Source of the DNA: an uncultured archaeon
GTDB taxonomy: Archaea; Asgardarchaeota; Jordiarchaeia; Jordiarchaeales; Jordiarchaeaceae
DNA length: 11,483 nucleotides
Assembly: GCA_964510585.1 (NCBI GenBank)
Contig: CAZECW010000011.1
Location: forward strand, 1 to 11,483
Direction: 5' to 3'
Within the stretch, counting starts at the first letter, position 1, and each line of letters starts with the position of its first letter. The position numbers and the translations under genes are program-made. Below the pieces are notes generated by a model. The model did not search any database, was not told the origin of the DNA, and saw only the letters and a list, made by a program, of their open reading frames with translations. Shown in pieces: positions 6,483-10,339 of this stretch.

Positions 6483-6636
6483 CTAAAATCCTCCTTTAAA
6501 TTGAATATTTCTCTGTGCAGGAATGTTTAAAGATTTCTCCATAGAATTGGATTTGAGGCTGAATTTTTCCGATACTGTTTTAATGGTGTTTATATTTTTA
6601 AAATTCATAAAATTTGAAAAATGAGGTGTGTTTGTT

Positions 6637-7593
6637 TTGAGGGCTTTGCTGATTGGGAATGGGCAACTGAGGGTTGTTGAAGATTATCCTAAACCTAAAG
6701 TGAGACCTGGTTGGGTTTTAGTTAAGCCTACTGTTGTTGGAATTTGTAAAACAGATTTGGAGCTTGCTAAGGGATATATGGGTTTTAGTGGTGTTCCGGG
6801 GCACGAATTTGTGGGCATCGTAGTGGAAGGTGGCGACGAGAAATTTTTGGGGAAGCGTATTGTGGGTGAAATAAACTTTGCCTGTGGCTCCTGTGATTAT
6901 TGCGCGAATGGCTTGCAGAGACACTGCCCAAACAGAAGCGTTCTGGGCATACAGGGAGCCGATGGAGCTTTTGCCGAGTTTGTTGCGCTGCCTCAAAAGA
7001 ACATTCACATTGTCCCGGAAGGTGTAAGTGATGAGCAGGCGGTGTTCATAGAGCCCCTAGCAGCTTCCCTAGAAATTCTGATGCAGACCCACATTAAGCC
7101 CACTTGGAAAGTATTGGTTTTGGGAGACGGCAAACTCGGCTTACTAGTAGCACAAGTACTCAGACTAACTGGATGCGATCTGTTGCTAGTAGGCAAACAC
7201 GAGAACAAAATGAGAATAATGAGGAATATGGGGATTAAAACCGCAACTCCTCAAGATTTGGCTCAAATAAAGGCGGATCTGGTTGTTGAGTGCACAGGTA
7301 ATCCCAAAGGCTATAATCTGGCCAAGAGCCTGGTTCGCCCCTCGGGTATAATAGTAGCCAAAAGCACGTATCACCAGGAACTCAGTTTGAACTGGTCAGA
7401 AATAGTGGTGGATGAAATCACCATTGTTGGCTCCAGATGCGGGCCCTTCCCTCCAGCAATAAGGCTTCTGGAGCAGGGACTTATTGACACAAAGCCCCTA
7501 ATAACCGCCAAATACAAGTTCACAGATGTGCTAAAAGCCTTTGAACACGCCAGTGACTCCAAAGCAATAAAGATACTTGTGGAAATGTCATAA
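6637..7593 (+). CDS. Zinc-dependent medium-chain dehydrogenase/reductase (alcohol/threonine dehydrogenase-like)
   Basis: GICKTD and GHEFVG (catalytic Zn), CGSCDYCANGLQRHC (structural Zn), GDGKLG (NAD binding). The start is placed at TTG 6637 because GAGGTG (6623-6628) sits 8 nt upstream; the ORF track starts at GTG 6628. Confidence 0.9.
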   Translation: MRALLIGNGQLRVVEDYPKPKVRPGWVLVKPTVVGICKTDLELAKGYMGFSGVPGHEFVGIVVEGGDEKFLGKRIVGEINFACGSCDYCANGLQRHCPNRSVLGIQGADGAFAEFVALPQKNIHIVPEGVSDEQAVFIEPLAASLEILMQTHIKPTWKVLVLGDGKLGLLVAQVLRLTGCDLLLVGKHENKMRIMRNMGIKTATPQDLAQIKADLVVECTGNPKGYNLAKSLVRPSGIIVAKSTYHQELSLNWSEIVVDEITIVGSRCGPFPPAIRLLEQGLIDTKPLITAKYKFTDVLKAFEHASDSKAIKILVEMS

Positions 7594-7622: not shown

Positions 7623-8849
7623 CTAAATTACTCCTAGGTTGCGTATCCAGGGCTGGAGCTCTTCTCCCAATAAGTTTAGGACATTGCTTTTTTCCATATT
7701 GGGCAGCACGCTGGCTATGTAGAATATTTTATCCTCCCACTCTAATGGTTTGCAAACAATGATTTCGTTTGGTCCTAACTCTAGGGATAGGGTGCTGATG
7801 TTTAGATGGTAATTTTTGGTTAAGTTTTCCCCGAGGCATATTATTCCCATGGTGGCGGTTGTCAATACTTCTTTGGTATCTGATGAGTAATCTGCTATTA
7901 GTAGAGCCCTATTATCAAATAGCATCAAATGTGTGCTTCCCAGTAGGTCTCCATAGTCCTTCAGTATTTCCTCAATCACCGGTATAGTGCCAATGCTTTT
8001 CCTTAGGGCTGACGAAAAGCTCAGAAATAATTTATCGCTTCTAAAAATACTCGTGTTATCTATGTGGTAGCGATTGATGTGGTGCTTCCTAAAAAGCTTG
8101 GCAATGTCCCTTTTGAGCTGCTCGATTCTCTCCCCCTCCTCCTGTGACACAGAACCCTCTGAATCTGACTTGTGAAGAAAAACTGTAGTGTAGGGAGCTT
8201 CGCCCGCTTTATTGTAAATGCCAAGGATACTCTCAAGGTAGCTTAGCGCCTCATTGTACCTTTCATAATCTTGGAGGTCGAGTACAAAAATTAGCAAATC
8301 TGTGTGGGCGAAAATCTCTCCATTTCCCTCAAAGTACTTTGTCCTATATTGTCCCCTTCCACCCAAATCGTATAGTTCCACCTGCATCCAACCAAATAAA
8401 GCAGCTTCCTCTCTATGTAGGCCTTCGGTTGGTCCTGTTTCGGTGGGAATCTGCTGATTTTTGGCGGCGGGTTCACATTTTGTTAGTGTGTGTATGATTG
8501 CGGTTTTCCCCGCATTGTCCAGCCCGGCAAAAACTATTTTTTTCGGTTCCTTAAACTTTCCTTCACCGACCGCCACAAGAATCTTCGCCGCATATATCCA
8601 CTTCTCAAGCTGAGACTTTTTAATTCCCGTAAGTTGACTTAGAGATTTGGCGTCTTGCTGTGAAAGTTTCTTAACATTAACAATTTTGAGGTCTTTCAAG
8701 CTTTTGACAGTCTCAGAATCTATTCCTACAATGATTTGAGGCGAGGATTTAGGAATCTTCTCGACCTCCATACGCTCCTTGACTAGAAAACCTCTTAATC
8801 TCTCAAAACTCATAAAAGGGGCAACCCCCATTTCTAAACAAATATCCAT
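7623..8849 (-). CDS. Small GTPase (Arf-like G1, Rag-like G4/G5) with N-terminal helix-hairpin-helix-like domain and C-terminal roadblock/longin-like domain
   Basis: G1 GLDNAGKT (aa109-116), G2 GPTEG, G3 DLGGR, G4 HKSD, G5 TSI. N-terminal IVGIDSETVKSL..IVNVKKL..QDAKSLSQLTGIKKSQLEKW resembles RadA-N/HhH repeats. C-terminal helix then MLFDNRALLIAD resembles roadblock folds. The start may be the downstream ATG at 8813 (GGGGGT upstream). Confidence 0.85.
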   Translation of the reverse strand: MDICLEMGVAPFMSFERLRGFLVKERMEVEKIPKSSPQIIVGIDSETVKSLKDLKIVNVKKLSQQDAKSLSQLTGIKKSQLEKWIYAAKILVAVGEGKFKEPKKIVFAGLDNAGKTAIIHTLTKCEPAAKNQQIPTETGPTEGLHREEAALFGWMQVELYDLGGRGQYRTKYFEGNGEIFAHTDLLIFVLDLQDYERYNEALSYLESILGIYNKAGEAPYTTVFLHKSDSEGSVSQEEGERIEQLKRDIAKLFRKHHINRYHIDNTSIFRSDKLFLSFSSALRKSIGTIPVIEEILKDYGDLLGSTHLMLFDNRALLIADYSSDTKEVLTTATMGIICLGENLTKNYHLNISTLSLELGPNEIIVCKPLEWEDKIFYIASVLPNMEKSNVLNLLGEELQPWIRNLGVI

Positions 8850-8977
8850 AAAAATTTTCAGCTATTTAATATACTTAGAGAAACTCAGTAATTATAACCC
8901 TTTTGTTGTCCTTACCGAAACAAAAAGGGTATGCTCCAACCCAAAAACCATCAAAAACATAAAAAACTGATAAAGTG

Positions 8978-8994
8978 TGAAAAGCATTTATTAA
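8978..8994 (+). promoter_or_regulatory. Candidate BRE-TATA promoter for the vWA gene
   Basis: Purine run GAAAAG followed by TTTATTAA (8987-8994), about 60 nt before ATG 9056. GAGG RBS precedes the start. Confidence 0.4.
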
Positions 8995-9055
8995 TCCCGA
9001 ATCTAAATAAAACACAGGAAAAACTCTCAACAACGAGAATGCGAGGCAAAACAAA

Positions 9056-10339
9056 ATGGAACTCGAAATAGTTAAAGCCGGCGAAACCGAAGGCGCAGCA
9101 TTCATCAACCCCGAAACCGCAAAAGCCGCAGGAATCTATGAAGGAAACATAATACTATTCGAAGACCCCACCACCGGAAATTTTGGAGCAGCACCAGTAT
9201 ACACCGACAAAAAAGTAGAGAAAAACAAAATAAAAATAGACTCAACCCTCGTAGAATCCAGCGGACTTGACGAAGGCTTCACAGTCACAGTCAAAAACTA
9301 CACAGGAAAACTACAACCCCTAAGAAAAATAGTAATAGGAGTAGAACCCCTAAGCGGACAACCCCCCGAAGAAGTATTCAAACAAGCCCAAGAAAGAAGG
9401 AGCGAACTCAAAAAACTGCTAAACAAAAGAGTAATCTTCAAAAAAATGAAACTCAGATGGAAAGAACTCGAATCCAACATATCCATAGAGTCCACAGAAC
9501 CCGAACTTAAAGGACAAGAATTCGCCCTAGTCAACTGGCCCGAAATAGAAAGAGCAGAAATAGTACCCATAGGACCAGCCATGCCCTTCAACGCCATACT
9601 CCTCATCGACGTATCAGGAAGCATGAGCACCAAAGACATGAAAGTCGTCAACATAGCACCCGCCAGAGAAGGAATAGTCAGCCTCCTAGAATCAGAACAA
9701 ATCTCAAACTTCCTCAGCAGATTCGAAGAAGGAGAAGAAGTAAAAAGAAGACATGGAGCAGCATTCGCCGCACTACTATACCTAGCAGAAAAAGTAGGAC
9801 GAGGATACGGCGAAAAAGTAGCCATAGCCACCTACCACGACGAGGCCAAAATCATAAAATTCGACGGAAACGACTACTACGAAGCCGCCACCGGAAAAAT
9901 AGACCAAGTAGCAGAAACCATACTAACAGAGGTCGCATACAAGACAGGAGGGTATACTAACATGAGTGACGCTCTTCGGAAGGCGATAAGCATTCTTAAG
10001 AGGTCGTTTAGGGGTTCCGGGCAGAACATGATTATCTTTATGACGGATGGCTTTCCGCAGGGTACAGATACTGAGGAAGCTGTTATGTCCATTGTGGAGA
10101 AGGAGCTGGCTGCGCTTCCCAATGTGGTTCTTTACACTGTGGGAGTTGGTGGAGAGGTTAATGATAGATTGATGGAGAACATCGCCACTGCGACTGGCGG
10201 AGTGTACTTTAAGGCTACTGATTTGGGTAAGCTTCTCAACTGGTACAGCGAACTGGCTAGAACCTTCACGAAGGCGGTTCACCAGAAGGAGAAGAAGCCA
10301 GAGGGAGAAGCCCCCACACCTGAAACTGAAGCCGAATAA
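9056..10339 (+). CDS. CDC48/p97/NSF-type N-domain (double-psi beta-barrel plus second subdomain) fused to a von Willebrand A domain; no AAA module
   Basis: vWA with intact MIDAS: LLIDVSGSM (9608), GGYTNMSDAL, FMTDGFP, LYTVGVG, ATATGGVYF. aa1-82 (AFINPETAKAAGIYEGNII...KIKID..SGLDEGFTVTVK) follow the CDC48_N pattern; aa85-172 (KIVI..P...LKKLLNKRV...IESTEP) follow CDC48_2. The vWA call is firm and the N-domain call is moderate. Confidence 0.8.
   Translation: MELEIVKAGETEGAAFINPETAKAAGIYEGNIILFEDPTTGNFGAAPVYTDKKVEKNKIKIDSTLVESSGLDEGFTVTVKNYTGKLQPLRKIVIGVEPLSGQPPEEVFKQAQERRSELKKLLNKRVIFKKMKLRWKELESNISIESTEPELKGQEFALVNWPEIERAEIVPIGPAMPFNAILLIDVSGSMSTKDMKVVNIAPAREGIVSLLESEQISNFLSRFEEGEEVKRRHGAAFAALLYLAEKVGRGYGEKVAIATYHDEAKIIKFDGNDYYEAATGKIDQVAETILTEVAYKTGGYTNMSDALRKAISILKRSFRGSGQNMIIFMTDGFPQGTDTEEAVMSIVEKELAALPNVVLYTVGVGGEVNDRLMENIATATGGVYFKATDLGKLLNWYSELARTFTKAVHQKEKKPEGEAPTPETEAE

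Follow-up and report, generated by a model that had tools for sequence, protein, structure and literature searches.

A Rag-type GTPase gene and a Cdc48N-vWA gene diverging from a common spacer in Jordarchaeia

Rag/Gtr GTPases such as RagA and Gtr1, together with LokiRagO (PDB 8yl2), carry a C-terminal roadblock domain (CRD) after the G domain; in MglA/MglB and Ragulator-type systems, too, the roadblock domain is a GTPase-associated platform for dimerisation and regulation. DEPDC5 is a scaffold in GATOR1, the GTPase-activating protein (GAP) complex acting on Rag, and starts with an N-terminal domain (NTD) that resembles the N domain of Sec18/NSF and is followed by a Sec23-like SABA domain, which binds NPRL2 (PMC8534245). 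A vWA-fold subunit acting with or located beside a small GTPase is also found in Sec23/24-Sar1 and in ArnA/ArnB (PDB 8s05). Asgard archaea encode many small GTPases with mostly unknown partners, and these partners are not readable from operons (Tran et al., PMC10933270). Here, we describe a complete contig of 11,483 bases (the window) from the genome of a hot-spring archaeon of the Jordarchaeia (Asgard), termed G000 (3.78 Mb, 96% complete). In this window, genes for a Rag/Gtr-type GTPase (P0001; positions 7623–8849, reverse strand) and for a protein that joins a Cdc48-type N domain to a vWA domain (P0002; positions 9056–10339, forward strand) diverge from a spacer of 206 bp.

Open reading frames (ORFs) at these positions and the domain matches of their products agree with the initial annotation in that two uncommon multidomain genes stand head to head, and both genes are genuine. 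We are half persuaded that they are separable neighbours, independent or at most loosely associated, and do not constitute an obligate two-component machine; an obligate GTPase-vWA module is unlikely. The vWA gene is the older and by far the better conserved of the two, losing the GTPase has left it unchanged, and elsewhere it is tied to other genes.

Conservation of the pair and loss of the GTPase

The divergent, adjacent pair is also present in the genomes G002, G003 and G004 and in the metagenomic lineage L189, the GTPase of which (P0013) is 52% identical to P0001. The paired loci have the gene order Alba, vWA, GTPase, alcohol dehydrogenase (ADH) and arginase in common, while contig ends truncate both genes in G001. 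All lineages with the pair belong to a single genus. The pair is thus syntenic wherever both orthologues exist, but the vWA gene stands alone in G005, a complete genome from the same genus with the arrangement ADH-vWA-Alba and without the GTPase, and in the sister family f2. In f2, no orthologue of P0001 was found, and the vWA orthologue is 70–75% identical to P0002; taking G005 and f2 together, vWA orthologues without the GTPase share 70–88% identity with P0002. Unlinked orthologues in related genomes had been named beforehand as the observation that would speak against a module, and such unlinking was found in part, i.e., as vWA genes without the GTPase in G005 and f2 and as families that are unlinked outside of Jordarchaeia. 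In f2, the slot between the ADH and the vWA gene is occupied by an ORF of about 240 aa (L065:7006–7716; L066:7705–8427) that resembles HAD phosphatases, an affiliation read by eye from DxDGT and GDGxND motifs.

In a tree of vWA sequences, G005 groups with G002, and both are sister to G000; G002 and G000 carry the GTPase. This position, combined with the retention of the GTPase-side box in the spacer of G005 (see below), indicates that the GTPase gene was deleted in G005, and the alternative of a recent insertion of the GTPase was rejected on the same grounds. The two genes also differ in constraint. Ratios of nonsynonymous to synonymous substitution rates (dN/dS) of 0.19–0.23 show that the GTPase gene is under purifying selection, which is, however, 3–5 times more relaxed than for the vWA gene (0.04–0.08, or 0.04–0.09 against genomes keeping the GTPase). 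GTPase identity drops to 52–62% in comparisons in which the vWA proteins remain 91% identical. When the vWA gene was compared with that of the GTPase-less G005, dN/dS amounted to 0.066 and was thus unchanged, so that there was no relaxation upon loss of the GTPase. Between G000 and G002, dS was 0.61 for the vWA gene, 1.58 for the ADH gene (positions 6628–7593) and 2.95, i.e., saturated, for the GTPase gene; the low value for the vWA gene could stem from codon constraint or recombination.

The spacer (positions 8850–9055, 206 bp) is a candidate divergent promoter region. Alignment of five Jordarchaeial spacers revealed two separate conserved A/T boxes, one on the GTPase side (positions 8886–8899) and one on the vWA side (AAAAGCATTTATTAAT, positions 8980–8995), which probably represent archaeal TATA/BRE (B recognition element) elements, one for each gene. 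Both boxes are still present in G005. An alternative start of P0001 lies at Met13 (position 8813); orthologues named by NCBI have 395–396 aa, and P0013 begins at the equivalent MSF... sequence. Met13 may be the true start, in which case the spacer would comprise 242 bp instead of 206 bp. In G003 (L068:1419–2313), the spacer between GTPase and vWA genes measures 895 bp compared with about 205 bp and contains no convincing ORF; the additional length is probably an inserted non-coding element. The remaining genes of the window are ordinary, just as had been annotated, and encode an aminotransferase, a luciferase-like oxidoreductase, a GNAT protein, a radical SAM/SPASM protein, an arginase-family enzyme, a zinc-dependent ADH and Alba.

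Domain architecture of the two proteins

P0001 (408 aa) is composed of a helix-hairpin-helix (HhH)-like domain, a Rag-type G domain and a roadblock domain. The N-terminal domain (about residues 10–95; positions 8565–8822, reverse strand) was assigned on the basis of its helical AlphaFold2 (AF2) model, with predicted local distance difference test (pLDDT) values of 87–97, and a Pfam match to HHH_5 (21 bits, residues 42–89) that lies below the cut-off. It gave weak matches to N-terminal regions of RadA/Rad51, its residues L51 and W84 are kept across the GTPase family, and the orthologue P0013 carries the NCBI name "helix-hairpin-helix domain-containing". The G domain (residues 100–286; positions 7992–8552, reverse strand) was delimited by motif alignment and structural matches. 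It features the P-loop GLDNAGKT, the G3 motif DLGG and the G4 motif HKSD; G1, G2 and G3 (DxxG) are intact, and G4 has the form found in Rag proteins. The best Pfam match was Gtr1_RagA (81.1 bits at a cut-off of 22 bits, E = 1.1e-22, residues 104–327), followed by Arf with 61 bits. The C-terminal domain (residues 287–404; positions 7638–7991, reverse strand) shows the order alpha-beta-beta-alpha-beta-beta-beta-alpha in the AF2 model and co-aligns with the CRD of RagA, Gtr1 and LokiRagO. For the complete model (44 homologues; pLDDT 84, predicted template modelling score (pTM) 0.83), LokiRagO was the closest structural neighbour, followed by RagA and Gtr1 and not by Arf/Sar1. The eukaryotic counterpart to be compared is therefore Rag and not Sar1; the analogy drawn initially with eukaryotic pairs of a GTPase and a vWA-fold protein was apt, but its choice of Arf/Sar1 does not suit a GTPase of the Rag type.

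While P0001 shares the Pfam match and the succession of G domain and CRD with Rag/Gtr proteins, it differs from these and from LokiRagO by the additional HhH-like domain of about 95 residues, by the lack of an adjacent gene for a paralogous partner in a heterodimer, by belonging to a fast-evolving, dispensable clade and by the lack of the catalytic switch-II glutamine. Motif alignment places Arg165 (positions 8355–8357, reverse strand; DLGG-R) at the site equivalent to Q66 of RagA. The sequence LGGQ is invariant in every non-Jordarchaeial relative compared, and G003 and G004 have Lys at the corresponding site, whereas G002 has Leu; in the P0013 lineage, the P-loop Lys, the G3 motif and the G4 Lys have been lost as well. 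In view of the missing glutamine in Jordarchaeial GTPases, P0001 is probably a slow or GTP-locked switch or a pseudo-GTPase scaffold. Genome G000 encodes one further Rag-like GTPase, a distant paralogue on contig 76 (L006, 24445–24990) of about 306 aa that is devoid of the HhH domain; its gene contains one in-frame TAG in the G000 assembly and none in the orthologues from sister genomes.

P0002 (427 aa) consists of a complete Cdc48/p97/NSF-type N domain with double-psi barrel and beta-clam (residues 1–174; positions 9056–9577), a vWA domain (residues 175–413; positions 9578–10294) and a tail that is acidic and rich in proline and appears disordered from its sequence and a pLDDT below 50 (residues 414–427; positions 10295–10336), all on the forward strand. 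The AF2 model (24 homologues) reached a pLDDT of 86 and a pTM of 0.63. In Pfam searches, VWA was matched with 55 bits and CDC48_N with only 17 bits; a paralogue on contig 47 matched CDC48_N above the cut-off (39.5 bits). The vWA domain is the best match to Pfam VWA in G000 and the most canonical domain of its kind there. It exhibits the pattern DxSxS...T...D of a metal ion-dependent adhesion site (MIDAS) on a vWA fold, formed by D185, S187 and S189 (positions 9608–9622), T301 (positions 9956–9958) and D331 (positions 10046–10048, all forward strand), and these five residues are invariant across homologues with 34–91% identity.

In Cdc48 itself, the N domain is the part that receives adaptors and substrates, and it is not a module for binding Cdc48. 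The proposal that the vWA protein links the GTPase to a Cdc48-type machine therefore does not follow from the presence of such a domain. Cdc48, p97 and VAT unfoldases also differ from P0002 by their AAA+ D1/D2 rings, since Pfam detected no AAA+ domain in P0002 and its N domain continues into a vWA domain; in Foldseek comparisons with the N-D1 part of p97, only the N domain superposed, and the overall root mean square deviation (rmsd) was about 20 Å.

The Cdc48N-vWA family in other Asgard genomes

Among 400 sampled Asgard genomes, 251 encode members of the Cdc48N-vWA family, mostly in one copy, and P0002 matches the family profile A3 over its full length (E = 2e-197). The searched literature has no name for this family. 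None of the 31 f5 genomes, which are apparently of the Heimdall type, yielded a member, although related GTPases are present there. Jordarchaeia carry three paralogues, one of which forms the P0002 clade (support 100/100). This clade is weakly sister (81/54) to a paralogue of the type found on contig 196, which is encoded directly downstream of an Amidohydro_2 gene. P0002 thus represents a paralogue specific to Jordarchaeia within a so far undescribed family of Asgard scaffolds.

An Amidohydro_2 gene directly precedes not only the contig-196-type paralogue but also vWA genes in f2, f6 and f7, and in G014 a gene for a GCS2-like ligase of 1144 aa (L073:8446–11880) abuts the pair of hydrolase and vWA genes. 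Fusions of about 890 aa that combine an Amidohydro_2-like region with a Cdc48-type N domain are encoded at L004:19–2697 (contig 65 of G000), L195:475–3132 and L072:10565–13228; in f7, the fusion gene is divergent from a pair in which an amidohydrolase gene is followed by a Cdc48N-vWA gene. In f9 and f30, a long-form orthologue (about 680–780 aa) comes after genes for a gelsolin-like and a Roadblock/LC7 protein (L070:5067–8901, L071:3784–7295, L191–L194 and L198). In these loci the gelsolin repeat is only detected below threshold, and in two from f30 the roadblock gene is located on the opposite strand. In G052, the gelsolin-roadblock pair and the vWA gene reside on different contigs; the roadblock gene is thus possibly a bystander, and we downgraded its proximity in f9 and f30 as a link between roadblock and vWA proteins. 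The vWA orthologue and related GTPases of f9 are encoded on different contigs or 35–50 kb apart.

Separable neighbours or a functional pair

If the two genes are separable, P0002 would be an autonomous, strongly conserved docking scaffold that arose by duplication in Jordarchaeia within the Asgard-wide Cdc48N-vWA family. Its Cdc48-type N domain would offer a groove for a peptide or a beta-grasp ligand, and the MIDAS-containing vWA domain would engage an acidic residue on a partner protein in a metal-dependent manner. P0001, whether a switch with slow or no turnover or a scaffold, would dimerise via its roadblock domain. The head-to-head layout would go back to the ancestor of one genus and have been inherited since, with each gene under its own promoter box, the GTPase dispensable to the vWA protein and no obligate coupling between them.

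Several observations weigh against a mere neighbourhood. In each of the five testable lineages with both genes, these are adjacent despite strong divergence of the GTPase, and with about seven vWA genes in the 3.78 Mb of G000, a vWA neighbour would arise by chance as a roughly 0.4% event. Beside a Rag-type GTPase, P0002 shows the domain order of DEPDC5 NTD-SABA, and DEPDC5/Iml1 chains of GATOR1/SEACIT occupied ranks 2, 3, 6, 8 and 11 in the Foldseek search with P0002. Furthermore, 63 of the 78 non-Jordarchaeial loci among the 80 retrieved by a profile search for HhH-Rag-like GTPases in representative genomes have, immediately upstream and in opposite orientation, a gene for a vWA-RING protein with about 400 aa. 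Lastly, dispensability of the GTPase is compatible with a facultative regulatory link.

A true but facultative pair of GTPase and scaffold is accordingly a serious contender, to which we assign somewhat less than even credence. The Rag-like GTPase would dock on the Cdc48N-vWA protein by its roadblock or G domain, and contact could be made via the MIDAS face or, by analogy, in the way the SABA domain of DEPDC5 meets NPRL2. The nucleotide state or the mere presence of the GTPase would then govern what the scaffold recruits; with the catalytic glutamine missing, hydrolysis would depend on a residue provided in trans, unless the GTPase acted as a constitutive adaptor. Retention in five lineages next to an improbable neighbour argues for such a pair, as do the purifying selection on the GTPase ORF, the DEPDC5-like architecture of P0002 and its five invariant MIDAS residues. 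The persistence of unchanged vWA orthologues in the absence of the GTPase argues for separable genes.

The vWA-RING loci bear on both sides of this question. The partner protein consists of an N-terminal Ssl1/p44-like MIDAS vWA domain and a C-terminal RING domain, and its genes occur in Lokiarchaeia-type genomes (L014:22–2643 in G054, L011, L012, L015, L016 and 58 further loci among L076–L149). The linked GTPases, of roughly 402 aa, have retained the catalytic glutamine. Both arrangements have in common a GTPase of HhH-Rag-like-roadblock architecture (24–31% identity) head to head with an intracellular MIDAS vWA protein; the vWA-RING protein, however, has a RING domain and lacks the Cdc48 N domain, and the GTPases fall into separate clades. 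Those linked to vWA-RING form one clade with a value of 97 in the Shimodaira-Hasegawa-like approximate likelihood ratio test (SH-aLRT), while Jordarchaeial GTPases constitute a long-stemmed clade of their own, the placement of which is not resolved by the backbone of the tree; a position inside the vWA-RING-linked clade is thus unsupported. Heimdall-type HhH-GTPases and two other subfamilies have different neighbours, and in these two a vWA neighbour is lacking, which again speaks for separability. In the Heimdall type, the HhH-Rag-like genes are head to head with a gene for a roughly 668-aa protein (L143:3782–5791, L151:3809–5812) that matches IFT52 GIFT/ABC_transp_aux and has, as read by eye, a hydrophobic start resembling a signal peptide or transmembrane segment.

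The outer flanks of the vWA-RING loci are conserved in 47 of 52 cases. The 63 loci are therefore close kin, and we downgraded them as independent evidence; even so, L146 and L015, which have diverged most and have different flanks, still keep the pair, in favour of a functional link. An orthologue of vWA-RING is absent from Jordarchaeial genomes, and the sole matches there are P0002 and its orthologues. This would fit a facultative pair, but it may be trivial and is weakened as proof of specific kinship, as P0002 is also the best generic match to Pfam VWA. Neither a GTPase-vWA pair nor a GTPase/vWA/RING pair from Asgard archaea was found in the literature searched.

It is improbable, though overlapping with a facultative pair, that P0002 is a true homologue of DEPDC5/Iml1 (Sea1) NTD-SABA and, with a longin or roadblock partner, serves as GAP scaffold for the neighbouring Rag-like GTPase. 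Domain order and size agree by fold, and the Foldseek matches extend over the full length (E 5e-12 to 3e-11, query TM-score (TMq) 0.39–0.40, rmsd 8.2–8.6 Å, 420–430 columns). The neighbour is of the Rag type, the f9 and f30 orthologues have a roadblock gene next to them, and NPRL2-like longins, the only such component given by Liu et al. (10.1101/2020.10.19.343400), are reported from Asgard archaea (see also PMC12290439). Sequence-level signals, on the other hand, were not obtained: Pfam IML1 (PF12257) matched neither P0002 nor its paralogues in a search of the whole genome with E values up to 10, and the family profile retrieved only canonical vWA domains and VAT-N, and no DEPDC5/Iml1, from PDB sequences. 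Each domain of P0002 is closer to canonical Cdc48-N or vWA domains than to DEPDC5. Unlike DEPDC5/Iml1, P0002 keeps its MIDAS, ends at residue 427 without SHEN, DEP and C-terminal domains, and belongs to a family that accompanies an amidohydrolase and not GTPases. A GTPase without catalytic glutamine would be an odd substrate for a GAP, the roadblock gene lies away from the vWA gene in G052, and the family was not detected in the f5 genomes with their related GTPases. No longin gene was detected in the window, and no Asgard homologue of DEPDC5 is named in the literature searched.

A Sec23/Sar1-type GAP or a Cdc48-adaptor module is very improbable: Arf is the second-best Pfam match of P0001, the vWA fold is common to the Sec23 trunk, and ArnB, described as an archaeal orthologue of the Sec23/24 core motif, is among the best sequence and fold matches of the P0002 vWA domain, but P0002 comprises only N and vWA domains in the model without the zinc finger, beta-sandwich, helical and gelsolin domains of Sec23/24, its MIDAS is intact while the Sec23/24 trunk has none, an FHA or zinc-finger partner is missing, and we rejected Sec23 orthology, in line with the initial annotation, as well as the adaptor role on the basis of domain content and the Rag-type GTPase.

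The Rag-type neighbour and the decay series of the GTPase are the features that set this window apart. We consider it rather improbable that the Cdc48N-vWA family is an archaeal forerunner of DEPDC5/Iml1 NTD-SABA, with one paralogue in Jordarchaeaceae coupled to a Rag-type GTPase and Asgard Rag-like GTPases generally accompanied by intracellular MIDAS vWA proteins. If this were true, the window would display a Rag-GATOR1-like axis that predates eukaryotes, with control running from a vWA-fold scaffold to a Rag-like switch or the other way round; the Lokiarchaeia-type genomes with their vWA-RING partner would supply another example. Should the link between the two genes be real, this would be a rare case in which genome layout names a candidate partner of a Rag-type GTPase, a partner resembling in its build the eukaryotic scaffold of the GAP complex for Rag, and the origin of Rag/GATOR-type nutrient signalling would become testable with two small thermostable archaeal proteins. 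Even without a functional link, the locus documents, in a natural series, how a Rag-like GTPase decays into a pseudo-GTPase; it also adds a paralogue confined to Jordarchaeia to a scaffold family not described before and directs attention to the conserved pairing of GTPase and vWA-RING genes.

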